Source of the DNA: a virus
IMG/VR virus record: IMGVR_UViG_3300025895_000020
Coordinates: 404 to 64,403 of that record
Length of the DNA stretch: 64,000 nt
Reading direction: 5' to 3' (one strand)
The notes beneath the pieces were generated by a model that was not told the origin of the DNA, made no database searches, and saw nothing but the letters and a program-made list of their open reading frames with translations. A program made the position numbers and the translations under genes. Below are positions 1,489 to 63,257 of this stretch, one piece after another (within the stretch, counting starts at the first letter, position 1; every line of letters begins with the position of its first letter).

Positions 1489-1520
1489 ATCATATTCGAC
1501 GGACCGTAGACGCTTGTCAA
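1489..1520 (-). promoter_or_regulatory. Possible sigma70-like promoter with operator-like site for the HTH gene
   Basis: Minus strand TTGACA (1520-1515) and TATGAT (1494-1489), but the spacer is 20 bp (atypical). ACCGTAGACGCT at 1503-1514. Inverted repeat TACGGTCC-N12-GGACCGTA at 1481-1508. Confidence 0.4.
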
Positions 1521-1528
1521 GCCGTTCC

Positions 1529-1837
1529 TTAGTTCAAGGCAGGATCGGTCGTAGCGGGCTTGCCGCAGTTGGGGCAGTCGGGGTCTCCACAAGTCTCTTG
1601 GGGGATTAGAGAGTCGTAGTACGACATGATCCGGTTGAGCCCGTCTTCGAGTAGCGATAGCGGCACCTTCTTATCTCGGAAAATGCCCACGATCTCGTCG
1701 TCGTCATCGATCACTACCACGTCTTGCCAGAAGACCGGCGTGGGGCTCCCTTCGAGTGGCGCAGCGGGTCCGCGCGTCCAGATGATCATATGCCCTGTGA
1801 CTTTGACTCTCATGCTTACTGCCCCCATCCCGCACAC
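1529..1837 (-). CDS. Hypothetical protein with C-terminal CxxxxCxxC motif
   Basis: ORF directly downstream of the DUF6011-like gene. CGDPDCPNCG near the C-terminus. Confidence 0.55.
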   Translation of the reverse strand: MCGMGAVSMRVKVTGHMIIWTRGPAAPLEGSPTPVFWQDVVVIDDDDEIVGIFRDKKVPLSLLEDGLNRIMSYYDSLIPQETCGDPDCPNCGKPATTDPALN

Positions 1838-2337
1838 ACGGGGCCAAGCCCGCGTTCGATGCTCTCCGGCACGGTGAGCTTACGACCACATCGGCCGCAG
1901 CGCCCCTCGTGCCAAAACTCCGCGGGTGCGAAGTCTTCATCGGTGGTGAAGCGCTTCCAAAGCCAGCGGAAGGCCCGCGCGCTTGGCGCCTCTTCGGTGA
2001 TCCGGCTCTTGCGGCCGTGCACGAACTTTTCAGCGTCGAAGATCGTTCCGAGAAACGAGTAGTCGGAATCGTTGTCGGGTCCGCTCAGCAAGCCGACGAA
2101 AAAGAGTTCCTTGTTCTCTTCGACTTCCTTGCGCTTGATCTTGTACGTGAAGCGGTTGCCGGTCTCCGGGTTCAGCACGGTGAACGTCGCGTTGCCCGCG
2201 AGCGCGTACGCTTTCGCAAAAGCTGGGGTGTGAAGTCGTCCGCGCATGCTCACGGGCGCATCGTCGGGCAGCTCTTGCGCACCCATCACGTCTTCGATCG
2301 TCGGGGGGTCTACAAACTCGTCGGTGTGGTCAATCAT
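1816..2337 (-). CDS. DUF6011-like phage Zn-finger protein
   Basis: C-terminal HEGRCGRCGRKLTVPESIERGLGPVC motif. RBS GAAGGGA upstream. Promoter at 2359-2387. Confidence 0.7.
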   Translation of the reverse strand: MIDHTDEFVDPPTIEDVMGAQELPDDAPVSMRGRLHTPAFAKAYALAGNATFTVLNPETGNRFTYKIKRKEVEENKELFFVGLLSGPDNDSDYSFLGTIFDAEKFVHGRKSRITEEAPSARAFRWLWKRFTTDEDFAPAEFWHEGRCGRCGRKLTVPESIERGLGPVCAGWGQ

Positions 2338-2358
2338 GGTCTTAGTCCCTTCACCTAA

Positions 2359-2387
2359 AGAGTACGGTGCACCGTATAGAATGTCAA
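2359..2387 (-). promoter_or_regulatory. sigma70-like promoter (leftward) with operator-like sites
   Basis: Minus strand TTGACA-17 bp-TACTCT. ACCGTATAG at 2371 and 2392. Confidence 0.7.
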
Positions 2388-2419
2388 ACCGACCGTATAG
2401 CTCCGTGTTTTGCAGGGAT

Positions 2420-2448
2420 TTGTAATCGTATACGATGTATGGTATACT
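2420..2448 (+). promoter_or_regulatory. sigma70-like promoter with extended -10 and perfect palindromic operator; predicted leaderless transcript
   Basis: TTGTAA-17 bp-(TGG)TATACT. ATCGTATACGAT at 2425-2436. ATG at 2455 lies 6 nt after the -10. Confidence 0.7.
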
Positions 2449-2454
2449 TGGGGG

Positions 2455-2988
2455 ATGAAGCGCTCTCAGCTATTCGCGCGTCTTGTCGCCCGACTCCCCG
2501 ATATCGTGTTCGCGGAGTACGGGCGGAAGGACGTGTGCATTCCCGCCGCGTACCACTGCCAGGAAATCTTACGCGCCAAGGGGATACCCGCGCGCCTTGC
2601 GTGCATGGACGCCGTTGCGATGAATTGGCCTTTCGTCGAATGGGTGAACCGGCGCTTGGATGGGCACCACGATCCAATGCCGCACTACGCATGGTCGGTC
2701 GGGATCACGCACATGAACCCGGATGCGGAAGGCTACCTGAGCCACCTTGTGTGTGTGTCGAAGGGCGCGGTGATCGATTGCGCAGCCGGGGGAATGTCAC
2801 GGCCGCAGCAAGGGATGCCCGTTCCCGCTGGGCTCATCGTGAAAGGCGGCAAGTGGCACGACGACACGACGGTGGTCACGTACGAGCCGTCGCCGGAGCC
2901 TGTTCCGCCGATGTGGCGGCTCGACCCCATCGCCACGGCGCGCGTGCAAGCGCGGATCAAAAAAGAGATCCTAGAGCAAGGGAGCTGA
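2455..2988 (+). CDS. Putative transglutaminase/papain-like (Cys-His-Asp) protein
   Basis: DVCIPAAYHCQEILRAKGIPARL...SHLVC...AVIDC pattern. Start moved from 2410 to ATG 2455 to match the promoter. Confidence 0.5.
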   Translation: MKRSQLFARLVARLPDIVFAEYGRKDVCIPAAYHCQEILRAKGIPARLACMDAVAMNWPFVEWVNRRLDGHHDPMPHYAWSVGITHMNPDAEGYLSHLVCVSKGAVIDCAAGGMSRPQQGMPVPAGLIVKGGKWHDDTTVVTYEPSPEPVPPMWRLDPIATARVQARIKKEILEQGS

Positions 2989-3022
2989 TTATCCTGAGCC
3001 CGTGAGCTAACCTTGCGGGGAC

Positions 3023-3874
3023 ATGGCCGACCCTTCGAAGCTCGCGCCCCCCGCGCCCGTCGATCACTCCGATCGGACCGTCGACGTACCGCGGACCATC
3101 GGGGCCTACGATCCAAGTGAAGACTACCCCGCGAAGCAGAAGACGCGGGCTGATTTCCGGCCCCAAGAGTTCGATCGAGTCATCGGGCAGCACGGCAAGT
3201 ACGTCACGTGGCGCAAGGCCCTGCTTTGCCCGTGCGAGAACCGCGATACGGGGCAGCCCCAAGTCGATTGCGAGGACTGCGACGGCTCGGGCTACGTCTA
3301 CGTCGACAAGCACCGCATCCGCGCGCACATGGTGAGCTTCGACAAGGCCACCAAAATCTACGAGAAGTTCGGCATGTGGCTCGAAGGCAACGTGCAGATC
3401 ACCGTGCTCCCGCAGTACCGGCTCGGCTTCCGCGATTCCATCGAAATGGAAGACGCGCTCATGAGCTTCAACGAGCTACTTCGGAAGGGGAACCGGCGCG
3501 GCCGGCGGAGCAAGCTCCCAGACGGCTACGACTCCGCTCGCTACCGGATCACCACCGTGACGCGGCTGGCGTATCATTCGGGAGACTCGTTCGCGCTACT
3601 CGAATCAGGCTACCATTTCGAAGTGAGCGATGAGGGGTGGATCAAGTGGCTCGCGCCGGGGAACAACGCCGTGCCTGACGGCGAGACAATCAGCGTGCTC
3701 TACGATTTCCACCCCGTTTTCCAGATCATTAGCCACCCGCATGCGACGCGCGATGACGTGCGGGGCACCAAGGTGGCCAAAGACACGTCCTACGCACTCC
3801 CCATTCAGGCCGCGGCGCGGCTTGATTACCTCATCGATATCAACGCGGCTGCGATACCGCCGGTCACAGGATAA
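3023..3874 (+). CDS. Neck / head-tail connector protein (Herelleviridae-like, Zn-binding)
   Basis: WRKALLCPCENRDTGQPQVDCEDCDGSGYVY motif. First gene of a coupled run leading to the sheath. Confidence 0.65.
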   Translation: MADPSKLAPPAPVDHSDRTVDVPRTIGAYDPSEDYPAKQKTRADFRPQEFDRVIGQHGKYVTWRKALLCPCENRDTGQPQVDCEDCDGSGYVYVDKHRIRAHMVSFDKATKIYEKFGMWLEGNVQITVLPQYRLGFRDSIEMEDALMSFNELLRKGNRRGRRSKLPDGYDSARYRITTVTRLAYHSGDSFALLESGYHFEVSDEGWIKWLAPGNNAVPDGETISVLYDFHPVFQIISHPHATRDDVRGTKVAKDTSYALPIQAAARLDYLIDINAAAIPPVTG

Positions 3875-4677
3875 TGGCGCTCGTCAGAGTCGATCTTGCC
3901 GATGTGGTAGCCAACGTGGCGCGGGGGTTGCCACGGCTCAGCGACACCCGGCGACTCCAAATGGAGCTGGGTGCATCGGCGATGCAGTATTGGAAGCAGC
4001 TCGCCAAAACCAAGCTACTCAGCTCATCGGCTTCCTACACGTCTTCGCTCAGCCATCGGTCCACGGAGAGCCGGGAGTACATCGTGCTCACGGGCGTGCT
4101 CCCGAACATGATTGAAGGCGGGTTCAAGGGCGGCGACATGCGCGATTGGATGCTCAAGGGCGCCAAATCCAAGATGGGCAAGAACGGGCGGTATCTCACC
4201 ATCCCGTTTCGCCACGGCTCCAAAGACACGACGGGCCGCAACGTCGGGCCGGAAATGCCCAGACCCATCTACAACGCCGCCAAGAAGCTCGACGGCACCA
4301 AGAGCAAGGCGAAGCGACTCACGGGCGAGGGCGGCAAGAGCGTGCTCTACGGCAAGCGCCTTGAGCCCCACGGGCGCGGCGTGAGCAAGCAAGTCACCAA
4401 GATGCTCAACACGAAGGCCAAAGACTGGCACACCACGAGCATCTACACGGGCATGCAGCGCACCGAAAAGCAGTACGAATCGGCGAATCAGACGGGCGGT
4501 TACACGACCTTCCGGCGGATCAGTACCAACACGCGCTCAGGGATCGACCCGAAGACCGGGCAGATGCGTAAGAGCTGGCACCATCCGGGGATCAAGGCCG
4601 TCAACTTCGCGGTCAAGGTGCGGGAGCGCGTGGAACAGCTCGCGCCTATCACTTTGCGGCAGATTTTAGGGGAATAA
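3874..4677 (+). CDS. Neck / tail-completion protein (HK97 gp10-like position)
   Basis: RYLTIPFRHG motif, basic composition, and position between neck and terminator genes (TAATG coupling). Confidence 0.55.
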   Translation: MALVRVDLADVVANVARGLPRLSDTRRLQMELGASAMQYWKQLAKTKLLSSSASYTSSLSHRSTESREYIVLTGVLPNMIEGGFKGGDMRDWMLKGAKSKMGKNGRYLTIPFRHGSKDTTGRNVGPEMPRPIYNAAKKLDGTKSKAKRLTGEGGKSVLYGKRLEPHGRGVSKQVTKMLNTKAKDWHTTSIYTGMQRTEKQYESANQTGGYTTFRRISTNTRSGIDPKTGQMRKSWHHPGIKAVNFAVKVRERVEQLAPITLRQILGE

Positions 4678-5462
4678 TGGGGCGCAAAGACAAAGCGAAC
4701 ACCCGCAACCTAGGCGGCACACTCCAAAACGAAATCGAGCCCTTCTTCGAAGGGCCGCTACTCGCCAACGCGCGCACGAGCATCGTGCTCTTGGAGCGTG
4801 TGATCTTGGGTCTTTTGCGCTCCGAGGTAGACCGGCTGAAGGATAACGAGGAAGAGCTGACGCGCTTTTTCAGCCATTTTTTCGATCCCACGGCGGGCGC
4901 CGAAGAGCGCGCGCGATTCGTCACCAACTTTCAACGCGAGCCGCCGGTCACGGTCATCGGCTACCCGCGCGCAGCGGGCGACTTCCCATGCTTCGCCATT
5001 ATCCTTGAGAGCGAGGAAGAGACCGACCCCCCGATCATGGGGGACTACGTTGGGATGACGCTCGAAGGCGAGCCCGGCGAAGCGGCGGAGTACGAGGGCG
5101 GCTTCTTTCGCAACACCTACGGGATCTACATCTACGCGCAGAATTCCGATGTGGCCGTCTATCTCTACCAGTTTGCCAAGATGGTGATTTTCGGTGCAAA
5201 AACCGCGCTTCAATGTGCGGGTTTCACCGACTTGAGCTTCAGCGGCGGCGAGCTGAGCCCGCAGGAAATGTACTTGCCGGATAACATGTACGCGCGCGTC
5301 TTGCGCGTTCAGGCGACCGCGCCAATGACGGTGCCGCGCCTCGTGATCGATCCTGCAAAGGTTCGTGTCCTAGGGCTGTACATGGATGATATCGTAGTGG
5401 ACGGAATGCGCGGGGGCGTGACACCGTACGCTACAGAAGGATCTGAAAATGGCGAAAGCTAG
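4677..5462 (+). CDS. Tail terminator / completion protein
   Basis: VIGYPR...FPCFAIILESEEE pattern and position two genes before the sheath. Confidence 0.5.
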   Translation: MGRKDKANTRNLGGTLQNEIEPFFEGPLLANARTSIVLLERVILGLLRSEVDRLKDNEEELTRFFSHFFDPTAGAEERARFVTNFQREPPVTVIGYPRAAGDFPCFAIILESEEETDPPIMGDYVGMTLEGEPGEAAEYEGGFFRNTYGIYIYAQNSDVAVYLYQFAKMVIFGAKTALQCAGFTDLSFSGGELSPQEMYLPDNMYARVLRVQATAPMTVPRLVIDPAKVRVLGLYMDDIVVDGMRGGVTPYATEGSENGES

Positions 5463-5787
5463 GGGGCGCTCCGGGGGGAGCACACAGAGTTCGTCGGAAC
5501 CGCGTAAGTCGGAGCCGGCGGTAGAGGATAACGGGGCCACGCCAGAGGCCGCGCCGGAGCCCGGTTTACCGGAGCCGACGCCCGAAGAGAGCCCTTCGGC
5601 AGATAGTTTGCCGCAAGGGCTGCCAGACCGAACGCCACGCGTTACGATTCAGGCATTCGTGCGGGGGGCCAAAGATCCAATTCTACGTGCGTTCGCAGGC
5701 CAAGAGCGGCTGACACAGGCCGCTCGGAAGCTGACACGGGCTGAGTGGAAGACGGCATTCGAAGCCTTCAAAAGTGAACCTAGGTAG
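5449..5787 (+). CDS. Small hypothetical protein preceding sheath
   Basis: Overlaps the upstream stop. Pro/Glu-rich N-terminus and helical C-terminus. Confidence 0.6.
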   Translation: MAKARGRSGGSTQSSSEPRKSEPAVEDNGATPEAAPEPGLPEPTPEESPSADSLPQGLPDRTPRVTIQAFVRGAKDPILRAFAGQERLTQAARKLTRAEWKTAFEAFKSEPR

Positions 5788-5801
5788 GGGGTAAGGGGTA
5801 C

Positions 5802-8072
5802 ATGGCTACTGCAATCTTTTTCAACGGGCGGCGAATTAACGTCCCGCAGGTCGTCAGCAAAGTCGACGCAAGCGCGCTGAGCAGTGTCAGCCCGTCCGCA
5901 GTCGGAATCGTCGCGCTGATCGGCACTGCCGAAGGTGGCGTTCCGTTGACCGTCGACGAGTCGGATTCCGACATGACACGGGCTGGCCAGGTCTTCGACC
6001 GCTACCGCACGGGAGACCTGAAAACCGCGTCGCTTTTCGCGTTCGAACCGTCCAGCGATGACGCCGTGCCCAACGGCGCGCAGAAGATCGTTGCCGTGAA
6101 AGTCAATCCCGCCACGCAGAGCACTGCGACCCTGCAAGACGGAACACCCGCCGGGGCCGTGGATCTCACGAGCCGCGACTACGGGCTGTTCACGGAGCAG
6201 ATCAATATCACGATCGAAGCCGGCACGAATCAGGGCAAAAAGCTCACCGTCGTCTTCGAGGATGAGAGCGAAGTCTTCGATGACGTGGGCGGCGATGCCG
6301 TGTTCACCGCGGGTTACGCGGCGGGCTCAGACGGCTACGACACGATCACAGGGCAAGTCACGGCGACGGAGTTCCTTGCTGCGGCCACCAAAGACGAGTT
6401 GGGGCTCTCCGCAGAGCGCACCGCCGATATCCCGGCACCGGGCGTGCTCGATGTGGCCAGCGACAATGTAGGCGACACGACTCAGACGATCACCGTCTAC
6501 GGGCTCGACGCGTCGGATGTGCCCATCAAAGAGAGCATTGCACTGAACGGCACCACGAACGTCACGGGCTCCGTGAGCTTCACCAAGGTGCTCGGGTGCG
6601 TGCTCGATGGGGTCGCTCTTGGCACCGTCACAGTCAGCGACTCGCCGATCACCGCCACGCTGTTCGCGCTCGCGACCACCGTGCTTACGCGCGGCGTCGT
6701 GCTCACCACCAATACGCCCGTCAACGGCGTGGTCACGGTGACCATCGATACGGACGACGCGACCGATTGCGTGATTCGAGGCACCAACGCTTCGGGCATC
6801 GAAATCGCAGAGCGCATCGATCTGACGGCCGCGAACACGTTGCCGGTTGTCGGCACCGTGGTGTTCGCCAAGATCACGCAAATCGAGCTGGGGGATACCG
6901 CCTTGGTGCGTACCGTCTCGATTAGCTGCAACGCAGAAGCCACGAAGCACAGCACGTTCGCAACCGTGTCGAAGCTCGTAGACCGGCTCAACACACTCGA
7001 TGGATTCACTGCCGCAGCACTTGTGCGGAACCCGACCACCTTTCTCATGACCGACATGGATAACGGGGCGGCAGTGAACCTTTTGGCGGTGACGGCCGAC
7101 TTCGATGGGGATCTCTTCAAGATCGTCGATAAGCTCAACACGGAAAGTGCCTACGTCAGCGCCGCACGCGCGACGGGCGCCGCCGGAGCGCCGGCAGACA
7201 CCGCAAGCCCGATCTACCTCACGGGCGGGATCGAAGGCGTCACGACGATCAGTCAGTGGCAAGCCGCCTTCGAACTTCTTCGCAAGCGGCGGGTGACCAC
7301 CATCGTGCCGCTCACTCAAGACCCCGCAGTGCACAACCTCTTGCTCTCCCATCTGGTCGAGCGAGCGGGCCGACTCCGCAGCGAGGCGAACGGCTACGCA
7401 GGGCTCGGCACCACGGACGGCGAGGGCGAGACTCGGGCCAATATCAAGTCGCAGATTCAGGTCGTTCAGAGCCGGCATATCAGTGCCATCGGCGAAGAGT
7501 GTCAGCGCTTCGACCCAGAGACCGGCGTTGCTACTTGGTATCCGCCGTACATCTACTCAGCAATCGCGGCTGGCATGCAGGCGGGAAGCCCCATCGGCGA
7601 GCCGATGACGCGCAAGCGCCCCAATGTCACGGACACCCGCAATGACAGCTCGTGGAGCGTCGAAAACGACGTGGAAGAGCTGATCGACGCAGGGCTCATG
7701 ATGAGTGAAAAGGTCGACGGCGTTGGCATCCGCTGGGTCCGTTCGATCACCACGCACTTGGCAGACGATAACGTCGTCTTCACGGAAATGAGCGCGAACG
7801 AAGCGGCCAACACGGCCATCTTCGAGTTGCGCCGAACACTCGAATTGAAGATCGGTCAACGGGGGTTGGCGGGTTCAGCGGCGGCTATCAAAGGGCTGGC
7901 CAACGATGAGCTTGGTAGGCTCATCGATGACGAGATCATCGTGGCGTACCGGGCACTGCAAGTAGAGCAGATCGGCGACGTGTTCCCGGTCTCGGTCGAG
8001 ATTGCGCCGGTACTTCCGATCAACTTCATTCCGATTACCGTCCATCTCGTGGCGGTACGGGCAGCGGCATAA
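5802..8072 (+). CDS. Contractile tail sheath protein
   Basis: N-terminal VSKVDASAL...VALIGTAEGG and C-terminal sheath signature (ELIDAGL...VRSITT...EMSANEA...VEIAPVLPINFIPITV). Strong RBS. Confidence 0.92.
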   Translation: MATAIFFNGRRINVPQVVSKVDASALSSVSPSAVGIVALIGTAEGGVPLTVDESDSDMTRAGQVFDRYRTGDLKTASLFAFEPSSDDAVPNGAQKIVAVKVNPATQSTATLQDGTPAGAVDLTSRDYGLFTEQINITIEAGTNQGKKLTVVFEDESEVFDDVGGDAVFTAGYAAGSDGYDTITGQVTATEFLAAATKDELGLSAERTADIPAPGVLDVASDNVGDTTQTITVYGLDASDVPIKESIALNGTTNVTGSVSFTKVLGCVLDGVALGTVTVSDSPITATLFALATTVLTRGVVLTTNTPVNGVVTVTIDTDDATDCVIRGTNASGIEIAERIDLTAANTLPVVGTVVFAKITQIELGDTALVRTVSISCNAEATKHSTFATVSKLVDRLNTLDGFTAAALVRNPTTFLMTDMDNGAAVNLLAVTADFDGDLFKIVDKLNTESAYVSAARATGAAGAPADTASPIYLTGGIEGVTTISQWQAAFELLRKRRVTTIVPLTQDPAVHNLLLSHLVERAGRLRSEANGYAGLGTTDGEGETRANIKSQIQVVQSRHISAIGEECQRFDPETGVATWYPPYIYSAIAAGMQAGSPIGEPMTRKRPNVTDTRNDSSWSVENDVEELIDAGLMMSEKVDGVGIRWVRSITTHLADDNVVFTEMSANEAANTAIFELRRTLELKIGQRGLAGSAAAIKGLANDELGRLIDDEIIVAYRALQVEQIGDVFPVSVEIAPVLPINFIPITVHLVAVRAAA

Positions 8073-8086
8073 GGTAGGGGGCATCA

Positions 8087-8521: not shown

Positions 8522-8533
8522 TAGAAGGGGGAC

Positions 8534-9314: not shown

Positions 9315-9324
9315 GGTTAGAACC

Positions 9325-14265: not shown

Positions 14266-14267
14266 CC

Positions 14268-14771: not shown

Positions 14772-14831
14772 AGGATAATCGAGCCGCTAGCATGGCGTAC
14801 CAACCCCTTGCGAGGGTAAGCTAGGCCAGCG

Positions 14832-17996: not shown

Positions 17997-18007
17997 GGGA
18001 AAAGCAG

Positions 18008-18514: not shown

Positions 18515-18517
18515 TCG

Positions 18518-30942: not shown

Positions 30943-31527
30943 TTAGGACGCTTCGCGGGAGAGCCGCAAACGTACGGTCAACTGGTTATCGCTCAGCTCC
31001 GCCGTGGAAGCTAGCTCGCCTTCGAACGCGCGCTTCATCCGGGCGAGCTTGGCCTTCTTTTGCTTCAACAGCGTCTTGCTCCGTTTGAGCTGGCGCTGTA
31101 GTTCTTTGATCCGATCTTCATTTTTGGCAGCGGCCTTTTGGAGCGCGACGAATTTGCGGTCGAGCGTGGGCTTGCCGCGCTTGCGCTTTTTCTTTTGCGG
31201 CACCTCATCGTACCCGGTCGTCGACGCGTCGTGGTAGACGCGGTGCAGACTCGCCTGACTCACATCCGGTTTGGCGCAGCGGACCATGCCATACGCTACA
31301 GCGCCTTCGGCTTGGCGCATGGTGAGCGTACTCTTCGGCACCGTGATGACGATGCGCCGCCCTTCGGCGAAGATGCGAAGATTGCGCGCCCGCGCTCGCG
31401 TTAGAAAGCGCACGGTGTAACTGGGAGCGGGCAACGCGTGCTGCTTAGCGACCTTCGCGCCCAGCGTGATCGCGCGTCGCAGTGCACGGCCGGAGTAGTT
31501 CGTATCGTTGACGAGCGTATGTGCCAT
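30943..31527 (-). CDS. Basic hypothetical protein with C-terminal coiled coil; predicted leaderless
   Basis: Start moved to ATG 31527 (MAHTLVNDTNY), 6 nt from the TATACT box. Confidence 0.65.
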   Translation of the reverse strand: MAHTLVNDTNYSGRALRRAITLGAKVAKQHALPAPSYTVRFLTRARARNLRIFAEGRRIVITVPKSTLTMRQAEGAVAYGMVRCAKPDVSQASLHRVYHDASTTGYDEVPQKKKRKRGKPTLDRKFVALQKAAAKNEDRIKELQRQLKRSKTLLKQKKAKLARMKRAFEGELASTAELSDNQLTVRLRLSREAS

Positions 31528-31533: not shown

Positions 31534-31561
31534 AGTATAGCATGCGTCGTATACGATGCAA
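31534..31561 (-). promoter_or_regulatory. sigma70-like promoter with operator
   Basis: Minus strand TTGCAT-16 bp-(TGC)TATACT. GTCGTATACGAT at 31546-31557. Confidence 0.7.
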
Positions 31562-32374
31562 ACGCGCCAACCCAGCGTTTTGCCAGAGAAGCGCCGGCTT
31601 AGGTGAGCCGGAGCACGAGCAAGATGAGGATCACGATGACGAGAACAGAGATTGCTGCCGAAGCGAGTTGGTTCAAATGCTTCATGGCCGGATCGTACGT
31701 GAGGGGCCGAAATAAAGAAGCCCCCGGAATGACTCGTTCCGAGGGCTTCCCATCCTACAACGTGGCTTCCACAACGAAGCGCACCCCGACCGTACCACGG
31801 ACGCAACTCTCCCGGTATCCCGCGTCCTGGCTCGGCGTCGCTTTACGTTCGGGGCTCCGCTTCGCTCCGCCCCGTGAGTCGGGAGCCTTCGGCCCCCTCC
31901 CATCTTTGAAAGAAGTGCCATCGGATCGAAACGCTTAGCGAAAGCGGCGATTTGATCCTCTTGTTGCGCACGCAACTGCGCACACACGCGAGGCGCCCCC
32001 GCTGTAAAAATCCGTTCTACTCCAACTAAGACCTAGACGTGCGCGTTGTAACGCCCGTGTACGCTTTTGCCGCTTGGGAACCTTCGATGGCCTACCATAC
32101 AGTTCCGCTCTGTCTCGCCACGCGCCGCTATAGATGCGCTCGTGTGGCTTTGTCCGTTGTTGGCTCTAGGTGTGATCGTCGATCCGCTATCGCAGCGCGT
32201 GTCGTAAACCCGCGCCCCTCTTGCACCCCGCCAAGTTGAATGGGCATTACGGCTCCCCAATGAGCTGCCCCCCGCGAGTTTACTAGCGATGCTTTGAAGT
32301 CGATCGATGACCCCACGGTGGGCTTGTAGATCGATCGTTTGGCGCTCCGCAAGACTCAAGAGCGATACAACCGG

Positions 32375-32701: not shown

Positions 32702-32820
32702 CGCTACCGGCACGGACAACTAACTCTTGACGACACACCCTACACGGATTGGGAAATCCCGTTTCAGGATAACGGCATTGTGCCATTATCCTCTGAGTAG
32801 GGCAAGCACATCTAGGCCCC

Positions 32821-36189: not shown

Positions 36190-37196
36190 TCAGCTTCGAG
36201 CGCGCGCTCCGGCAGTTCGATGTGGGTGGGTTCATTACCAAGGTCGGCGGGCAAAAGGAAAGCCGATCGAGCCATTCCCACGAATATCTCATGACGTGCC
36301 CGAAGTGCGCTTCCGAACGGCTCCGGTGGAACCATCAAAAAGACGCGTGGATCTGTTGGGGCTGCAACCGCCGTGGCAACACCGTGGCGCTCTTGCAGAT
36401 CGTCTTCGGGCTCGATGAGCAATCGGCGCTTCGCTACATTCTGGACGGCTACGAAGGGGGTGATGGGCAGCACACGAGCTTAGACGTGCAGAGCATTGCG
36501 CCGGCCACGCGCAAGCGCGCCACGCTTCGCCGACTTCCAACGATCCCGTGGCCCCCCGATGTGGAACGGCTCGACTACGTGCACGCGCACGCCCAAGCGT
36601 GGATCTACTTGCACCGTCGCGGTGTGTCCCAACAGCAAGCGGCGGCGTGGCGCTTGGGCTTCTGCCGGCACGGGTGGCTTCAAGGCTATCTCTTCTTTCC
36701 GGTCTACATGGACGATGGGCTCGTGTACTGGCAAGCGCGCGCCGCGTTTGATCCACCCGGTGGTGAGCGCAAGGGGTTCAAGAAGACCATGAACCCGAAG
36801 AGCGTCGAAGGTCACGCCACTGCGGGTGACGTGTTGCTCAACTACGATCGCGCACGGACCGAACAGCACGTCGTGGTGACCGAAGGGCCGTTCGATGCGA
36901 TCAAGGTCGGCACGCACGCCGTGGCGATGCTGGGCAAGGTGCCGACGCCGCACAAGGTTGCGCGACTTCTGCGCATGCGCGCGATGCGGTACACGATCTA
37001 TCTCGACCGCGGGCAAGAAGAGCGACGGTACGCCGAACAGTTGGCGAGCCAACTCAGCGTGCAAGCGCCGGTCTACATTGCTGAACCCCCCGAAGGTTAC
37101 GACCCTGGATCACTGACTCCCGAACAGAACGCGTGGGTGATCCAAAACGCCACACGCTACAAAGCACAGTTGAGCGAGCGTCCGCTAGCCCACTAG
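36186..37196 (+). CDS. dnaG: DNA primase (Zn-finger plus TOPRIM)
   Basis: CPKC...WICWGC zinc finger, VVTEGPFDAIKV and IYLDRG TOPRIM motifs, and DPGSL. Confidence 0.9.
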   Translation: MISFERALRQFDVGGFITKVGGQKESRSSHSHEYLMTCPKCASERLRWNHQKDAWICWGCNRRGNTVALLQIVFGLDEQSALRYILDGYEGGDGQHTSLDVQSIAPATRKRATLRRLPTIPWPPDVERLDYVHAHAQAWIYLHRRGVSQQQAAAWRLGFCRHGWLQGYLFFPVYMDDGLVYWQARAAFDPPGGERKGFKKTMNPKSVEGHATAGDVLLNYDRARTEQHVVVTEGPFDAIKVGTHAVAMLGKVPTPHKVARLLRMRAMRYTIYLDRGQEERRYAEQLASQLSVQAPVYIAEPPEGYDPGSLTPEQNAWVIQNATRYKAQLSERPLAH

Positions 37197-37385
37197 CGAT
37201 TCCCACTTGACCCGGTTCCCGGTCGCCTCTTGAATCTTGCGCGCGGTTGCGACCGTGGCTTTGCGTGTTCCTTTGAAAAGGTCGTGGATGGTCTGATAGC
37301 GGAGCCCGGTATCACGCGCGAGCATCGCCCGCGCTCCGTGCCCTTGCTTGTCACACCATTTTTGGAGTTCCGTTCGTTTGCTCAT
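37185..37385 (-). CDS. Cro/YdaS-like HTH transcriptional regulator; predicted leaderless
   Basis: ARAMLARDTGLRYQTIHDLFKGTRK...ARKIQEATGNRV. ATG lies 6 nt after CATAAT. Confidence 0.8.
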   Translation of the reverse strand: MSKRTELQKWCDKQGHGARAMLARDTGLRYQTIHDLFKGTRKATVATARKIQEATGNRVKWESLVG

Positions 37386-37391: not shown

Positions 37392-37420
37392 ATTATGGGT
37401 GACGCCCGTTGGACGGTCAA
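37392..37420 (-). promoter_or_regulatory. sigma70-like promoter for the HTH gene
   Basis: Minus strand TTGACC-17 bp-CATAAT-6 nt-ATG. Confidence 0.75.
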
Positions 37421-37464
37421 CCGTCCAGTTTTTTCAAGGGAAAAGACCCCTTTGCGATTATCCC

Positions 37465-37494
37465 TTGCATCGTATACGGTCAAGCGTCTATTAT
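37465..37494 (+). promoter_or_regulatory. sigma70-like promoter with operator (divergent from HTH)
   Basis: TTGCAT-18 bp-TATTAT. ATCGTATACGGT at 37469-37480. Confidence 0.7.
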
Positions 37495-37516
37495 GGGTGT
37501 GAAGGGAAAAGAAACC

Positions 37517-56466: not shown

Positions 56467-56488
56467 GGGGAATCTAGGGGGATTTTAG

Positions 56489-58408
56489 ATGGCACGGACA
56501 TTCATACGACAAGACATTCAGATCGGGAGTACGAACGATACTCTCATCGGATTCAATGATGCGGTATCGCCCGCAGCAACAATGGAATCGGGCGCCGGCA
56601 CGGTAGCGGACGACCTGAACAACTTGCGCTCGATGGTTTCGAACCTGATCGATGTGCAAGCGGGCAATTGGTACACCGATGCCAACATCCCGGCCACGTT
56701 GGAGACGGGCGTCAAGCGAGGCGTCAACGATCTGAACAGCGGCCTTCATGCGGTCGAGAAAAAGCGCATCTTGCGCGACGTTCACAATCTGGTCGATGTT
56801 TGCGCTGGCGCTGCGGCGACCGGAACCCTGACCGCTGGGGGACAGCCGGCGAATGACGATACGGTCACGATCGGCTCGCAAGTTTACACTTGGAAGACGG
56901 TCCTGACGGGCGCGGCCGATGAAGTGTTCATTGGCGGTACTGTGGCGCTTTCGCTAGAGAACCTACGTCGCGCCATCAACGCCGATGGCGTCGCGGGCAC
57001 AAACTACGGCACGGGCACAGTCGCCAATGCCGATGTGACCGCCACTGATACGGCCACGACCGTAGTCGCGACGGCGATTATCGGAGGCACGGCTGGTAAC
57101 TCGATCGCCACGACCGAAAGCGGAGCAACCACGAGCTGGGGCGGCGCAACGCTCTCCGGTGGTCTGGATGCCAACTTTTTGATCCTTGGTACTGGCGAGC
57201 TTCCGACGCAGACCATAGCCGCAGTCGGTTTGGTTTCCACGCTGGGCACCGTAGTCGCGGCGCACACCGGAACCTTCGGTACACACTCGCTCGATGAGGT
57301 GGCGGGCTCCAACGCCTTGAGCCCCTTGAACCTCATGCTCATCGTGGACGGCGACACTCGCGACCCGATCCTATCAGCCGGTAGGGAAGTCTGGGGTCTG
57401 TTGCAGTCCGAAAGCGCAACGGATGGTCATACCATTACGGATGCCACCACGACGCGCGTTCAGATTTCATTCGTGGTCGAGAACGCTACTGGCGACGATC
57501 TCATAGCGTGCCCAGTGGGTGACATTTCGGGCAAGTGCGTCGACTACACGACTCGCGAGCGAGTTCGCTTCGAAGACCTGAACGAAGCCGACTTCTTGCG
57601 CGGCGCCATCGTGGATATCGGTGCTGGCACTGGCACCGTGGACCTGCAAACGGCCTACGACAATCAGGGTTCTACCCCGATCGACTCCACGACGAACGTG
57701 TTTGTCGACTTGGAGGGTCCAGGGATCAAGCATTGCTGGCGCGACGACCTAGAAGCAGAGCTGTTCTGCATCATTGAGGGCAGTGCGGGTGGTACTACTC
57801 AGATTGCGATCTCATCGGACGTTGACACTTTCAACGTGGATGCGGTCGTCAATGACTTCGCGAATGGCGTGACGGTCAATAGCGATGGCACAAGGCCCAT
57901 CCAAGTCGGCGTCACCGATGGCGTCATCGAAAGCACGGCGGGCAATCTTCGGGTCAACTCCGCGGACGAGCTGTACCTAGATGATGTAAACCAGACGGGC
58001 TCCACGTGGGCACAGACCGATGGTATCAAGCTCTCCGAGACCACGGCGGAGTGGGATGCCTTCGAAACGGCGTTCGGCGAGGTCTCGCTCTTGAACGCAA
58101 TCACGCAGGCGTACGCCGGGCAGATTCGTACCAAGGTCCAGGCGACCGTCACGAGCAATGTCACGGCGAGCAACGATGTGAACGGTCCCGGCACTGCACA
58201 CGCCAACACGGATGTGGACTTGGCGCCGTTCAATAACGTCACGTTCAACACGGACGTTGACGTGTTCCTGAATGGTGAGCTAATGAGGCACACCGATGAC
58301 GTGGTAGCGGGGGGTACACCGGCAGACGGCGACTTGCAGTTCCTTTTCAATCTGAAGGGGACCGGCACCAAGCCCGACCAAATCACCGTCATTGTGAACG
58401 GACAGTAA
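56489..58408 (+). CDS. Virion structural / decoration or collar protein
   Basis: T/A/G/D-rich. GTLTAGGQPANDDTVTIGSQVYTW...ENLRRAIN module and C-terminal DVFLNGELM. Confidence 0.7.
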   Translation: MARTFIRQDIQIGSTNDTLIGFNDAVSPAATMESGAGTVADDLNNLRSMVSNLIDVQAGNWYTDANIPATLETGVKRGVNDLNSGLHAVEKKRILRDVHNLVDVCAGAAATGTLTAGGQPANDDTVTIGSQVYTWKTVLTGAADEVFIGGTVALSLENLRRAINADGVAGTNYGTGTVANADVTATDTATTVVATAIIGGTAGNSIATTESGATTSWGGATLSGGLDANFLILGTGELPTQTIAAVGLVSTLGTVVAAHTGTFGTHSLDEVAGSNALSPLNLMLIVDGDTRDPILSAGREVWGLLQSESATDGHTITDATTTRVQISFVVENATGDDLIACPVGDISGKCVDYTTRERVRFEDLNEADFLRGAIVDIGAGTGTVDLQTAYDNQGSTPIDSTTNVFVDLEGPGIKHCWRDDLEAELFCIIEGSAGGTTQIAISSDVDTFNVDAVVNDFANGVTVNSDGTRPIQVGVTDGVIESTAGNLRVNSADELYLDDVNQTGSTWAQTDGIKLSETTAEWDAFETAFGEVSLLNAITQAYAGQIRTKVQATVTSNVTASNDVNGPGTAHANTDVDLAPFNNVTFNTDVDVFLNGELMRHTDDVVAGGTPADGDLQFLFNLKGTGTKPDQITVIVNGQ

Positions 58409-58412
58409 GCAC

Positions 58413-59045
58413 ATGAATGAACGCGTTCTCGGTAAGATTGAGGTTTCGGGGCTGATCGGGGAACAGCTCGATGCGGCGCTTCAGCTTGCCGAGAACGAGG
58501 TTCAACAGCGTAAGGGGATGCAGTTCGGTTGCCAGTCCGCGGGCAAGGCAATAGCCGGGCTGCTTCCGCATATCGACAAGAGCTGCGATGAGGGTGAGTT
58601 CGATGGGCTCGAAGGGGTCGAGCTGCGCAACGCGATCAAGAAATGGATCGTGCGCGCCAACGATGCGGTCGAGAATCTGTACAAGCGCGCGCAAGCCGAA
58701 GAAATGGTGGCGCATGGGAAGGCCGCGGCGATGAAGACCGCGGTCACGATCGTCCAGCGTTATCACGACTCCGCAGCCGCGCGACACGCGCAGCTCACGG
58801 CGGAGCCTGAGCCCGACGATGGGACTGGGGATAACAAGGGTCGACGATCCGGCGAGCGCCCCGGCGTTAGCTCGCTTGACGAGCGGCGGGAGCAAGCCGC
58901 GCGTGAGCGTGCGGCGAAATCGGAAGCTGACGCAGAGAAGACCGTCGACGCTGCGCTCAAAGCTGCGGCGCCTACGAAGCGAGCGACTAAGAAGCGAACG
59001 ACTAAGAAGCGCGCACCAAAGAAGACCCCGAAGAAGGGCAACTAG
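58413..59045 (+). CDS. Coiled-coil protein with Lys-rich C-terminal tail
   Basis: Helical core ending in TKRATKKRTTKKRAPKKTPKKGN. Confidence 0.7.
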   Translation: MNERVLGKIEVSGLIGEQLDAALQLAENEVQQRKGMQFGCQSAGKAIAGLLPHIDKSCDEGEFDGLEGVELRNAIKKWIVRANDAVENLYKRAQAEEMVAHGKAAAMKTAVTIVQRYHDSAAARHAQLTAEPEPDDGTGDNKGRRSGERPGVSSLDERREQAARERAAKSEADAEKTVDAALKAAAPTKRATKKRTTKKRAPKKTPKKGN

Positions 59046-59048
59046 CAC

Positions 59049-59504
59049 GTGGCGGGCGCGCGCGATGAACGGGTCAATGATCTTTTCTTCTGCGATCAGA
59101 CCGCGGAAGGCAATCCCAACGAAGAAGGGATGGTCCGCTATGTGAGCGGCGATCTCGTGGCGCTTCTAGGCGGCGTCGTCAAGAGCCTCACGGCCGGCGT
59201 GGGGGGCGGGATCACACCTAGCCAGCACCGCGCGCTCGACCAGCTTGTTCACGGCATTGCCGAGAACAGCTTCGATGAGGTCATCTACACCGGCACCAAG
59301 GTCACGTCGATCATTGTGTGGACCAGCGTCGCCAAAACAACGAAGATCCGCGAAGAGCTATTCACGTACACGGGGAACCAGGCGACAACGATCGTCACCA
59401 AGCAATACAATGCGGCGGGGACATTGATCGTGGGCGAAACGATGACTGAGACAGTGAGCTACACGGGCAGCAAGGTTGACGATATCACGCGGGTCATGAG
59501 CTAA
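59049..59504 (+). CDS. Putative virion protein
   Basis: Beta-rich C-terminus. TAATG-coupled to the next gene. Confidence 0.6.
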   Translation: MAGARDERVNDLFFCDQTAEGNPNEEGMVRYVSGDLVALLGGVVKSLTAGVGGGITPSQHRALDQLVHGIAENSFDEVIYTGTKVTSIIVWTSVAKTTKIREELFTYTGNQATTIVTKQYNAAGTLIVGETMTETVSYTGSKVDDITRVMS

Positions 59505-60589
59505 TGGCTGGCGTCGTCGTTCTGAATCAAGTTCCCGTCACGCTCTACGATTCAGCGGGTAATGAGATCGCGCCGGCAACGCAGGCCACGCTCGAAGCAG
59601 CTCGCGTGCTGTTGGCGTCGCTCGAAGGCAAAGACTTTGCGACGCAGGCCACGCTCGCGACGCGCGCATCCGAAGCCACGCTTGAAGCCGCGCGTGTGCT
59701 GTTGGTATCCCTAAACGCCAAAGACTTCTCGACCGCAGCGAACCAAGTGGCGCTGGGCGTCATTCTGGGCGCGATTGAAACCAAGGTCGCCACGGAGACC
59801 ACGCTCGCCGCTATCAAAGACACGGACGGGATCAAAAAGATCACCGATCCGCTGCCCGCCGGAACGAACATTATCGGCGGCACTCGCCTCTACGATCACA
59901 ATGGGAATCCGCTATCGGTACAGGATGGCGTGGCCTATCCCGCCGGCAACGATCACTTGCTGATCGGCGGTGTCCATGAATCAGACGGCAACACGTACCA
60001 CGCACGGATGAGGGACGACTTTGTTACCCCGGCGACCAAGCGCATCCTGGTCGAAGCGGCCATCGCTCCGGGGTCATCCATCGCCACGACTACCGGCGCA
60101 AGCGCGGGGGAAGGAGCCGTCGCAGAGCGGCTTTTGAATGGCAGCTCTTACGATATGGTGGTGAACGGGTCGGGTACGCCAGTCACTTTCCAGTTCGATG
60201 CGCTTCCGGTTGACGACGTTGTGCTCAATAGCTTGCGGCTCGTGTTCTCTGCGGGCTTTTTTGACTTCACTGGCAACGCCTTCGGTAAAGGGGGCGGTGC
60301 TTTGAGTAACGGCGTTACCGCAAGCATCGTGTCAAACAACGGCGCGTTCTCTGGGCAGCTAGCGGAGCTGATGGTGAACGAAGATTTCCTTCGCTTGCTC
60401 GACTTCTCGGTATCGCAGGCGGGTTCTACGGACGTGATGGCGGCGAGCGTTCCCTTCACGGGGAATATCCGATTGGTGGGAGGGAGCAGCGATTACGTTC
60501 GTGTCACCATCAACGATAACCTGACTCCCGGCTCGCGAGGTATCACCCACTTCACGGCCACGGTTTACGGCACGGAGATCATGCCCTAA
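59504..60589 (+). CDS. Putative virion fibre/collar protein with internal helical repeats
   Basis: ATLEAARVLL.SL..KDF occurs twice. C-terminal MVVNGSGTPVTF...FG...ALSNG beta domain. Confidence 0.6.
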   Translation: MAGVVVLNQVPVTLYDSAGNEIAPATQATLEAARVLLASLEGKDFATQATLATRASEATLEAARVLLVSLNAKDFSTAANQVALGVILGAIETKVATETTLAAIKDTDGIKKITDPLPAGTNIIGGTRLYDHNGNPLSVQDGVAYPAGNDHLLIGGVHESDGNTYHARMRDDFVTPATKRILVEAAIAPGSSIATTTGASAGEGAVAERLLNGSSYDMVVNGSGTPVTFQFDALPVDDVVLNSLRLVFSAGFFDFTGNAFGKGGGALSNGVTASIVSNNGAFSGQLAELMVNEDFLRLLDFSVSQAGSTDVMAASVPFTGNIRLVGGSSDYVRVTINDNLTPGSRGITHFTATVYGTEIMP

Positions 60590-61596
60590 TGGCTCATAAG
60601 TTCAACGAAGACCGCTCTCTTGTGATTGCCGATCGCAATCTCACGCTAGGCCAAGCCGCGTTCACACGGCAGGACAACGGCACGGAGCCCATGAATATCA
60701 ACGGGTCGGCTTCTGGCGCTCCCGTCAATCTTTGGAATGGCAGTGGCGGGGCCGGTGACGCAGGCGCGGATTGGGCTGTGTCTGGCGTGGGCTCTGAACA
60801 AGCGGCGGCAGCGTTTGCTGGCGACGATGGCTGGGACACCGGGGTGACCGCGCAGAACGACATAACCACGTTTGACAACGGCTCATTGCTGGACGTGGAC
60901 GCGCTTTACGGGGACTTGCAGTTTCAGATCAATCCGCAGGCGTGGCCCGTAACTTCGCGGCTTCGAGTCGGATTCCTAGACGCGGCAAACAACCTTGTGG
61001 GCCAGTGGCGTCGGGTCGAAAACTACACCACAAACATGGACCTTGGGATCTGGCAGCCGGTGTCGATTCCGATTGCGGACTTCGCGCTCACTGGCCAAGT
61101 GCAAAAGCTCCGATTCGAGTACCGGGTAACCAGCGGGCAACGGCACTATTTGGACGATATCAAGCTCGTGCCTTCCGGTGGCAGCGGTCCCTATCGGTTC
61201 CGGGTCGCTGCGCCCGATGCGCTTACGAAGTACCACGTTTCCATGATCGTGTTCATCGTGAGCGGGCCTAGTGCGGGCTGGACTTCGACGACGTTTGCGA
61301 ACATCGGCGCGCTTCCAAAGGGGCTCATCCTTCGGCAGCGGCGGGTCTCGGATGGTGAGATATTGTGGAGCTTCAACAGCAAAGACAATGTAGAGCTGTT
61401 CGGGCGCTACCACCCCCAAGACGATATCGAGTTCGCCGATGGCACCTTGCTTGTCGGGTTCATGGTGAAGCCCGGCAAAGCGAGCATCGTGGTGACCGAT
61501 GACGATGTGTTGGAGTTCGTCGTGAGAGACGACTTGAGTGCGCTGAGTGCGGCGCGCGCCTTTGCGCACTTCGGCACGGAGGTAATTGAGCCATGA
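60589..61596 (+). CDS. Putative virion protein with carbohydrate-binding-like domain
   Basis: WQPVSIPIADFAL...KLRFEY...YLDDIKL (CBM-like). The C-terminal domain resembles that of 59504-60589. Confidence 0.55.
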   Translation: MAHKFNEDRSLVIADRNLTLGQAAFTRQDNGTEPMNINGSASGAPVNLWNGSGGAGDAGADWAVSGVGSEQAAAAFAGDDGWDTGVTAQNDITTFDNGSLLDVDALYGDLQFQINPQAWPVTSRLRVGFLDAANNLVGQWRRVENYTTNMDLGIWQPVSIPIADFALTGQVQKLRFEYRVTSGQRHYLDDIKLVPSGGSGPYRFRVAAPDALTKYHVSMIVFIVSGPSAGWTSTTFANIGALPKGLILRQRRVSDGEILWSFNSKDNVELFGRYHPQDDIEFADGTLLVGFMVKPGKASIVVTDDDVLEFVVRDDLSALSAARAFAHFGTEVIEP

Positions 61597-62315
61597 GTAT
61601 CAGCATGAAGCGGGCGCCGACCACGAGCGACGGCCGGCCGATTTCGCTCACAAGCCGCTTTCGTGGCAACGTCGATCCGTTCTTTGCGGGCTCAGGGGAT
61701 AATGAGAACGGACGCGGGCAAGACGCGCTGTTTTGCATCCATTGGCCGAGCGCGCCTAGCGCCCCCGAAGACAAGGCGTTCGACTTCGGGTTCTGCGACT
61801 GGATCTACATCGCCAAGGGCACCATGCGCTGGATCAATGGTGGGCCGGGGGACTTCATTAGCTTCTACGCGTACGCGCCCGCCACTACGGTCACGCCGAA
61901 CGCGGGGGCCGGTAACTGCAATCTCGTGGCCACGGGAATGGGCTTCAATATGATCGTCGCTGCGGCCGGCAATGGGAGTCATGACTACTCCGATGAAGTG
62001 CCGGTGCCGGCCTTCGATGCAGACGGCGAGCCCAACGGTTACTGGGCGTGGGACGAGCCTGACACGGGCAAGGGAGTCATGAGCTTCGTAGGTGACGGCA
62101 AGAGCATGTACAACCTGTACGACGCCACGTTGCCGCTTGTGTACTGGGTCAAGAAAATGCCGATGCTAGGCGACGGGCAGACGGTGCTGCACCCCGAAAC
62201 CAAGGCACGCAAAGTGCTCCCCCATTGGAAGTTCAAAGTGACCGTGCACAACGAGGCACTTGGCCCACTGCAAGTGAGCTGGCATCTGGATTGCGCGCGG
62301 AAGAGCACGCTATGA
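61593..62315 (+). CDS. Hypothetical (probably virion) protein
   Basis: ATGA-coupled. Aromatic- and Gly-rich beta sequence. Confidence 0.65.
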   Translation: MSISMKRAPTTSDGRPISLTSRFRGNVDPFFAGSGDNENGRGQDALFCIHWPSAPSAPEDKAFDFGFCDWIYIAKGTMRWINGGPGDFISFYAYAPATTVTPNAGAGNCNLVATGMGFNMIVAAAGNGSHDYSDEVPVPAFDADGEPNGYWAWDEPDTGKGVMSFVGDGKSMYNLYDATLPLVYWVKKMPMLGDGQTVLHPETKARKVLPHWKFKVTVHNEALGPLQVSWHLDCARKSTL

Positions 62316-62324
62316 GGGGGGAAC

Positions 62325-63239
62325 ATGCGGGCATTGGTTTTAGGGGGCGGGGGCAGTAAGGGGCCGTACCATTTGGGTGCGATCACGACGCTGTTATCCC
62401 AAGGATATCGGTTCGATCTATTCGCGGGTGTGAGCGTGGGGGCGCTCGTCGCCGCGTATCTGGCGCAGTTCGATGATCGCGAAGTGCTCATGGGGCACCG
62501 TGCGCTGGTCGATACCATGCTGCGCGTGAACACGCGGGATATCTGGCGCAACTGGAAGTTCTGGCGCCGCGCCGCGGGCATGTGGAAGTCGAGCATCTAC
62601 AACTCCAAGGGGCTTCACCGGCTCATCGATAAGAGCATCGATCCAAAGAAGGTGCGGGAGAGCGGAAAGAAGCTGCGCATCGGGGCCGTGGATCTCTACA
62701 GCCGGGGCTACACGATCTTCGATGAGAACTACGTTCCGCTCACCAAAGCCATTGCAGCGAGCGCATCGATTCCGTTCGCGTTCAGTCCGGTGGCGATGGG
62801 GGAGAGCCTTTGGATCGATGGGGGTGTGCGCAGTGTCACGCCGTTGGCGTCGGCCATTGAAGCGGGGGCCACCGAAGTCGTCGCGATCACCTTGCAAGCC
62901 AAGAACCCGAGCTTGCGGTTCGAAAAGAAACCCAACGCGCTCGACATTGGGCTCCGCTCGATTGATCTCATGAGCGATGAAATCGTCGCCAAGGATATCA
63001 AGATCGCGCAGCTCTACACGAAGGTCCGAAGCCTTGAGCTACAGCTCGCCGGGGCCACCGGGCGCTCGCTCGATAAGACCACGAACAAGCGGGCCGTGCA
63101 TGTGCTCCACATCCGGCCGGAGTTGGGGCTGAACGAGGATAGCTCTGTGTTCGATCCCGCCGAAGCGGCACGGCTCTACCAGCAAGGCCAGGAAGACGCG
63201 CGTCACGCGGTGCTTGCGGACGTGCCCTTGACTACCTAA
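62325..63239 (+). CDS. Patatin-like phospholipase
   Basis: VLGGGGSKG oxyanion loop, GVSVG nucleophile, ASASIP, and WIDGG catalytic Asp. RBS GAGGGGGG. Confidence 0.9.
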   Translation: MRALVLGGGGSKGPYHLGAITTLLSQGYRFDLFAGVSVGALVAAYLAQFDDREVLMGHRALVDTMLRVNTRDIWRNWKFWRRAAGMWKSSIYNSKGLHRLIDKSIDPKKVRESGKKLRIGAVDLYSRGYTIFDENYVPLTKAIAASASIPFAFSPVAMGESLWIDGGVRSVTPLASAIEAGATEVVAITLQAKNPSLRFEKKPNALDIGLRSIDLMSDEIVAKDIKIAQLYTKVRSLELQLAGATGRSLDKTTNKRAVHVLHIRPELGLNEDSSVFDPAEAARLYQQGQEDARHAVLADVPLTT

Positions 63240-63257
63240 CCGACCGTATACTATCGT
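63228..63257 (+). promoter_or_regulatory. sigma70-like promoter with operator, embedded at the patatin 3' end; predicted leaderless
   Basis: TTGACT-18 bp-TATCGT-6 nt-ATG(63264). ACCGTATACTAT at 63243-63254. Confidence 0.6.

Follow-up and report, generated by a model that had tools for sequence, protein, structure and literature searches.

A 12-bp palindrome recurs in the core of seven separate sigma70-like promoters in a 64,000-nt stretch of viral DNA, here called the window, which comprises bases 404-64403 of the 65,426-bp IMG/VR record IMGVR_UViG_3300025895_000020 (61% G+C). These promoters head accessory and early gene units; the site is confined to promoters, its position within them is fixed and it is conserved in relatives of the phage. 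We regard it as probably the operator of a phage-encoded, and probably dimeric, repressor that would turn these units down jointly; that a protein binds the site, that repression is the effect and which protein is the binder are points that we infer. An original prediction, made from the letters of the window alone, had proposed one palindrome common to separate sigma70-like promoters of accessory and early islands, and the seven promoters described here, with their conservation, bear this out. All seven 12-mers that it listed are present. We add one more conserved site (O2, 2392-2403), and find that an additional half-site is frequent in the -10 regions. The promoters and sites are as follows (window coordinates; promoters are written as -35 hexamer, spacer length in bp and -10 hexamer; aa, amino acids; HTH, helix-turn-helix).

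2420-2448, plus strand: promoter P1, TTGTAA-17-TATACT (-35 at 2420-2425, -10 at 2443-2448), with the perfect 12-bp palindrome ATCGTATACGAT in its spacer at 2425-2436; the target is a leaderless 177-aa gene with its ATG at 2455.
31561-31534, minus strand: promoter P2, TTGCAT-16-TATACT (-35 at 31561-31556, -10 at 31539-31534), with spacer site GTCGTATACGAT at 31546-31557; the target is a leaderless 194-aa gene with its ATG at 31527.
37465-37494, plus strand: promoter P3, TTGCAT-18-TATTAT (-35 at 37465-37470, -10 at 37489-37494), with spacer site ATCGTATACGGT at 37469-37480; the target is a 343-aa gene at 37517-38548, and the promoter is divergent from a Cro-like gene.
38551-38580, plus strand: promoter P4, TTGACG-18-TATAAA (-35 at 38551-38556, -10 at 38575-38580), with spacer site ACCGTACACGAT at 38557-38568; the targets are AAA+ (MoxR/CobS-like), vWA-type and sigma genes (38601-42945).
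38571-38576: extra half-site of P4, ATCGTA, extending into the -10 box.
2387-2359, minus strand: promoter P5, TTGACA-17-TACTCT (-35 at 2387-2382, -10 at 2364-2359), with spacer site ACCGTATAGAAT at 2371-2382; the targets are a DUF6011 gene (2337-1816) and the genes downstream of it.
2363-2376: 14-bp palindrome TACGGTGCACCGTA, extending into the P5 -10 box.
2392-2403: distal site O2, ACCGTATAGCTC, 4 bp upstream of the P5 -35 box and 21 bp from the P5 spacer site, centre to centre; one of its half-sites is strong.
1520-1492, minus strand: promoter P6, TTGACA-17-GAATAT (-35 at 1520-1515, -10 at 1497-1492), with spacer site ACCGTAGACGCT at 1503-1514; this is the own promoter of an HTH_Tnp_1-like gene at 1447-1103.
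63228-63254, plus strand: promoter P7, TTGACT-15-TACTAT (-35 at 63228-63233), with a probable site, ACCGTATACTAT, at 63243-63254, which overlaps the -10 box and does not lie in the spacer; the target is the MazG-like gene downstream, 63264-63932.

This gives eight sites at seven promoters, six of them in the -35/-10 spacer, one over a -10 box (P7) and one upstream of a -35 box (O2). The placement in or overlapping the spacer put forward in the original prediction stands for six of its sites; that at 63243 is corrected to one over the -10 box, and the spacer range given there, 16-18 bp, widens to 15-18 bp once P7 is included. The P7 site scores 14.7 bits on a matrix built from the other sites and has AACCGACCGTATA in common with O2. 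Scanning the phage and its relatives with the site's own matrix yielded a table of 22 distinct promoters, all 22 with spacers of 15-18 bp. In 14 of them exactly 6 bp separate the end of the 12-mer from the -10 box; the 12-mer overlaps the -35 box by 0-3 bp and has its dyad near -24/-25 (taking the -10 hexamer as -12 to -7). The fixed offset calls for no special mechanism: a 12-bp site fits a 17-bp spacer only by abutting the -35 box, sparing the extended -10 bases. The consensus reads A-Y-C-G-T-A-T-A-C-G-R-T, with most weight on the triplets CGT (positions 3-5) and ACG (8-10). Several -10 boxes are preceded by CG, which adds another half-site, 14 bp downstream from the site in the spacer; it can be read in the sequences of P4 and the P5-type promoters and, more weakly, in those of P1 and P2. 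Only P1, P2 and the motif-less promoter of the Cro-like gene passed a strict consensus promoter scan, P3 to P7 having a strong -35 box and a weak -10 box. At P1 and P2 the ATG follows the -10 box by 6 nt, so that the genes are leaderless, and P3 to P6 have leaders with the ribosome-binding site TGAAGGGA. The same leaderless spacing was seen at TTGGGC-17-TATAAG (genome base ~238-265, ahead of the window), before a 423-aa gene, and at the start codon at 45359 (TATAGG-6-ATG).

Enrichment over coding DNA, on which the original prediction had staked the motif, is clear. Genes were called with a rough, home-made codon-usage model, by which 93.4% of the genome is coding and approximately 6.5% non-coding. 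All three genome copies of the exact core, CGTATACG, are intergenic, as are 11 of the 13 copies of CGTATA/TATACG (two are coding), the most intergenic-enriched of 2017 hexamers (Fisher p 1e-11, Bonferroni 2e-8); CGTATAC is likewise the top-ranked heptamer. Allowing up to three mismatches, ATCGTATACGAT has 31 matches in the window against 15.1 ± 3.8 in shuffled sequence, a number reached by none of 100 shuffles. With at most one mismatch, YCGTATACGR occurs 16 times in this genome and its backwards control three times.

Sequenced phages include no close relative; megablast against a phage collection gave no match, nor did a scan of genome contigs for the relative at NCBI. The relatives are uncultured and come from IMG/VR and other assemblies: G001 (101 kb, approximately 75% nucleotide identity), G003 to G006, several short contigs and the distant 100-kb relative G002. 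The counts for YCGTATACGR against its control are 16 : 5 in G001, 13 : 2 in G003, 8 : 3 in G005 and 3 : 7 in G002. At P1, TCGTATACGAT is invariant in five distinct orthologous promoters, in which the last three -35 bases and three of the six gap bases vary. At P3, CGTnnACGGTC is invariant in five distinct orthologues while the outer and central positions vary, the site variants being ATCGTACACGGT, ACCGTATACGGT, GTCGTATACGGT and ATCGTCTACGGT. The P2 site is kept in G001, with one outer-position change, amid diverged flanking non-coding DNA; the whole of P4 is nearly identical there, next to diverged upstream coding DNA. Aligned orthologous promoters thus show selection on the palindrome that does not depend on the two promoter boxes. 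The relatives have additional promoters built in this way (L045, L048, L028 and L060) without a counterpart in our phage, and the 8-bp core is perfectly palindromic in P2, P3, L045 and L048. Constraint is uneven among the remaining sites. The spacer site of P5 is kept in L006, L008 and L066 and degraded in L007 and L009, which makes it the least constrained. At O2, TATACGGTCG is kept in six of seven orthologues, with the full CGTATACG core in L009 and L065. In the P6 orthologues the TACGG half is kept and the other half varies, and the P7 site of G001, ACCGTCTATTAT, keeps the left half alone. The statement in the original prediction that no structural operon carries the motif agrees with its absence from the structural blocks; in L066 the structural operon retains its own upstream element (TGATTATCC...GCTAACCTTGCG) though P1 and its gene are gone.

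RNA polymerase contacts a promoter asymmetrically, so a perfect palindrome is not expected from the polymerase alone, and the twofold symmetry of the full sites fits a dimeric protein. With near-consensus -35 boxes and spacers of 15-18 bp, sigma70 geometry implies that a factor bound in the spacer should repress. For a symmetric site with its own selection inside strong promoters, the best reading is an operator to which a dimeric repressor would bind. We propose that a phage protein would occupy the 12-bp site in the spacer of strong promoters used by the host RNA polymerase and exclude the polymerase, and that the early and accessory units would be turned down together once the protein accumulates. 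The P4 operon (38601-42945) encodes the AAA+ (MoxR/CobS-like) and vWA-type proteins and ends in a phage sigma gene (41554-42945; Pfam Sigma70_r2, E 4e-6), so the same protein would also limit sigma production, and the early phase would be a self-limiting pulse.

Two small HTH proteins encoded in the window are the obvious candidates for the binder.

1103-1447, minus strand: gene for P0002, 114 aa, the last gene of the leftward P5/P6 unit.
37185-37385, minus strand: gene for P0001, 66 aa, with a Cro/YdaS-like HTH, divergent from P3.

P0002 has an N-terminal HTH of the HTH_Tnp_1 family (IS3 OrfA-like; Pfam PF01527, E 5e-8). Its AlphaFold2 (AF2) model consists of helices at residues 18-58, a basic low-confidence linker (59-75) and a long C-terminal helix (76-113) that is nearly invariant in 15 homologues; the protein is found in G001, G003, G004 and G005. 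The leftward unit has the gene order DUF6011 gene, acidic 86-aa gene and HTH gene, and carries four of the eight sites, one of them on the HTH gene's own promoter. Strong ACCGTA half-sites occur head to head, tail to tail (2363-2376 and 1481-1508) and as 21-bp direct repeats, a variety of arrangements that suits HTH domains on a flexible linker, as in P0002. Only some 5-7 bp separate the CGT and ACG triplets, a short distance for a compact dimer of the Cro type, and this would also favour P0002.

The match of P0001 to Pfam HTH_3 (E 1e-4, 22.7 bits) lies just under the cut-off of 23 bits, and that to YdaS (17.9 bits) under a cut-off of 30. Its HTH region is invariant in eight homologues and its gene always adjoins a P3-type promoter in the relatives; its own promoter (TTGACC-17-CATAAT, 37420-37392) lacks a full site. 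Among 5.8 billion proteins, homologues of P0001 and P0002 were confined to close relatives, at identities of at least 61%. There, both HTH genes co-occur equally with the motif (G003, without the replication module, is uninformative on P0001), and DUF6011 loci at a greater distance lack both. P0005, a basic coiled-coil protein encoded behind P2, has an N-terminal half with a weak likeness (TM 0.4-0.5) to metallopeptidase-like folds in the Atlas, and no HExxH was seen in its sequence. Searches of the PDB by sequence with P0001, P0002 and P0005 gave nothing usable. The DUF6011 protein was considered as a possible zinc-ribbon regulator, but its good AF2 model (pLDDT 82) has no Foldseek match in the PDB at E ≤ 0.001. 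In distant phages, too, no regulator genes adjoin those for DUF6011 proteins.

Not all of the phage's regulators need be in view. Capsid and terminase genes are absent from the 65.4-kb record and, in the 95-101 kb relatives, lie beyond the left-end 423-aa gene; there, the HTH gene is adjoined by a further gene and then the capsid module (SU10_MCP), which the record does not hold. The record thus represents about two thirds of a genome of approximately 100 kb, and regulators may sit outside it. Judged from sequence, P0002 is a plausible but tentative choice of binder, while P0001 is a doubtful one, as is any other phage protein, including those of the missing third of the genome; P0005, the DUF6011 protein and a protein of that missing third are possible binders. 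P0002 is slightly favoured over P0001 by its acr-aca-like unit, the varied half-site arrangements and the triplet spacing, which are arguments and not tests.

Several observations weigh against a dedicated operator with an assignable binder. Since the gene calls are home-made, some 'intergenic' stretches may contain small genes, and words bearing TATA are generally intergenic in this genome. In the matrix scan, six coding matches reach at least 12 bits where approximately one is expected from a first-order Markov model, an excess that codon usage may explain. P1 and P2 are identical at 22 of 25 positions, over a stretch that runs from the palindrome to one base past the -10 box, and the P5-type cassettes have approximately 60 nt in common, including the leader and ribosome-binding site; because these promoter families are alike beyond the palindrome, part of the similarity reflects common descent. 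The P5-type, P6 and O2 sites each have one half that is well kept, and so are not truly symmetric. The phage is known solely from marine and marine-sediment metagenomes, the source of all runs that contain the sequence, and the identical presence-absence pattern of P0001 and P0002 makes the choice of binder a guess. Taken to its limit, the resemblance among cassettes would leave the palindrome without a separate function, as a leftover of promoter-cassette duplication and of TATA-rich words confined to the non-coding part of a GC-rich genome. The P1/P2 and P5-type likenesses suit such an origin, and so does the distribution of TATA, which is depleted approximately five-fold genome-wide (20 copies against ~95 expected) and is intergenic in 13 of the 20, nearly all in -10 boxes or operator sites. 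However, CG precedes eight of the 13 intergenic copies, so that the word is specific despite the general TATA bias; P3, P4 and P6 have little in common besides the site; and orthologous promoters conserve the palindrome above adjacent non-box bases and even above the 3' half of the -35 box. We therefore hold a functionless leftover to be very unlikely.

The word could instead be a positive or polymerase-related element, recognised by the polymerase itself, by the sigma factor of the phage or by an activator or appropriator that the phage encodes, a MerR-like one included. The distance of 6 bp to the -10 box in most promoters would fit, and the better preservation of the -10-side half (TACGGY) in the P5-type, P6 and O2 sites is an asymmetry that would suit such an element. 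Yet the fixed offset simply follows from fitting 12 bp into a 17-bp spacer, the full sites are perfectly palindromic (P1 throughout; P2, P3, L045 and L048 over the 8-bp core), and the word also occurs upstream of the -35 box (O2, L060) and over the -10 box (P7). With -35 boxes near consensus, an activator is unnecessary. MerR-type promoters, which likewise have a palindrome between the two boxes, have over-long spacers of 19-20 bp that the activator untwists, and we reject a MerR-like activator on the 15-18 bp found here; a Pfam scan of approximately 48 proteins matched none of MerR type, the record lacking about a third of the genome. A promoter element of any such kind seems quite unlikely, and of the two regulator types offered in the original prediction the dimeric repressor remains the more economical, while the MerR-like activator falls. 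It is also conceivable, though improbable, that a host transcription factor binds the site; the phage would then have taken over an operator or activator site of its host, and its early promoters would track host physiology. The site is short and symmetric, as are those of many bacterial regulators, and the phage proteins point to no binder, the searches having given no PDB relatives and only generic HTH matches in Pfam. Against this, half of the eight sites are gathered at a single small phage operon whose last gene encodes an HTH protein, and to our knowledge no host motif matches the palindrome. In G002, moreover, the motif is not in excess and the searches detected neither of the HTH genes, a combination that fits a phage-borne pair of protein and site better.

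Among systems tested by experiment, the closest analogue of the proposed repressor and its operator would appear to be the Aca protein at its acr promoter. In acr-aca operons, a consensus-like core promoter contains an inverted repeat, often with a second one nearby, small accessory genes lead and the HTH gene is last; Aca proteins were shown experimentally to repress by excluding RNA polymerase (PMC9410906). The leftward unit (2387-1103), encoding the DUF6011 protein, the acidic 86-aa protein and the HTH protein, has this layout, with inverted repeats in the core of P5 and P6 and the HTH gene at the end. It differs in that the site recurs at no fewer than four other promoters, as far as 60 kb away and with that of the sigma operon among them, which makes this a regulon and not a single autoregulated operon, and in that the HTH is IS3 OrfA-like (PF01527). 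The likeness to Aca is one of layout, and the scans assigned no function to the proteins encoded ahead of the HTH gene. Tentatively, and as one possibility among several, P0002 may be a transposase-OrfA-like protein, with a long helix that would dimerise, recruited as an Aca-like autorepressor and extended to a genome-wide early regulon that gates the sigma operon; its tethered HTHs would read ACCGTA half-sites head to head in the 12-mer, tail to tail at its own -10 box and as 21-bp direct repeats.

The lambdoid Cro/CI operators (lambda OR and OL, phage 434) are 14-17 bp long with the recognised bases approximately one helical turn apart, and lambda Cro turns early transcription down in lytic growth. 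As in those phages, palindromic operators here lie across early promoters that point away from each other, P1 and P5 diverge from a region with three sites much as at OR, and a small, putatively Cro-like HTH gene adjoins one target promoter. The site, however, is only 12 bp, with conserved triplets 5-7 bp apart and not ~10 bp; the sites are dispersed over the genome; and the promoter of the Cro-like gene has no full site. No integrase, partition gene, CI-type repressor or immunity region turned up among the scanned proteins of the 65 kb held by the record, an incomplete genome. Dispersed repressor sites are also known from the C1 operators of the temperate bacteriophage P1, which are asymmetric. 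The stoperators of Cluster A mycobacteriophages are read by a monomer and also halt elongation inside operons (PMC9283540, PMC6550527). Our sites resemble both in that one repressor would coordinate separate transcription units through many genome-wide sites, but theirs are asymmetric 13-17-mers of temperate phages, whereas these are palindromic and promoter-confined. What sets the present system apart is the contiguous 12-bp palindrome, its restriction to the promoter core and its spread over seven units, the sigma operon included.

Several other elements adjoin the promoters and genes discussed above. At 1481-1508, a 28-bp inverted repeat with 11-bp arms around the P6 -10 box includes part of the P6 site. 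Seven relatives retain the repeat although both arms have changed (GGTCC/GGACC in our phage is GACGC/GCGTC in L066), and it might serve the HTH gene as a special site of autoregulation or form a hairpin in P5 read-through RNA. Near P3, the palindrome TGGACGGTCAACCGTCCA (37411-37428) was considered as an operator and rejected, being the stem of an intrinsic terminator with compensatory and G-U changes in relatives. That terminator (hairpin and T-run, 37408-37434) follows the primase operon, and its stem includes the -35 box of the Cro-like gene promoter. Two metatranscriptome runs hold short contigs of the phage, one of which (207 nt) begins at 37499, 5 nt after the P3 -10 box; contig ends cannot show a transcript start, so nothing is drawn from it. 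Just upstream of P2, on the minus strand at 31601-31684, a 27-codon open frame that G001 also conserves encodes the hydrophobic peptide MKHLNQLASAAISVLVIVILILLVLRLT. In unrelated phages, genes of the DUF6011 family also lie behind sigma70-like promoters with long, unrelated palindromes (L023 ~3860-3900, TTGACA then the 18-bp AGATGCTGATCAGCATCT; L019 ~3860-3920, with 15-bp arms; L015 locus ~3900-3960), and the family seems to be a typical first cargo of operator-gated early promoters.

A second word, [CG]ATTATCC, occurs 17 times when both strands are counted, in coding as well as non-coding DNA, where approximately two copies are expected from base composition; the 17 include 2986-2994, 32783-32791, 37455-37463 and 45323-45331. 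Three plus-strand copies lie 33-35 nt before start codons (3023, 32821 and 45359), three directly follow a TGA stop, and the copy before the structural operon is kept in L066 despite the absence of the upstream gene. The word may be a phage-sigma promoter element, although many antisense copies do not fit this. Elsewhere, the window has the genes of a contractile-tail module, with the sheath at 5802-8072 and baseplate proteins, those of a replication module, with helicases, primase, DNA polymerase, a UvsX-like recombinase and SbcCD-like proteins, and that of a phage Dam-type N6-adenine methyltransferase (54821-55306; PF05869, E 3e-15).

The shared site described here is real, but the control that it suggests is of a kind familiar from phages and brings no new principle. 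The promoter-operator cassette, approximately 30 bp long, strong by sequence and conserved, would offer a possible tight expression switch for GC-rich hosts with its repressor identified. For an uncultured clade of marine-sediment myoviruses of approximately 100 kb with a sigma factor of their own, the sites provide a map of the host-polymerase (early) units and name two or three small proteins as candidates for the early-gene repressor. If P0002 does act in the way suggested, one protein would determine both how long the early phase lasts and the passage to transcription by the phage sigma factor.

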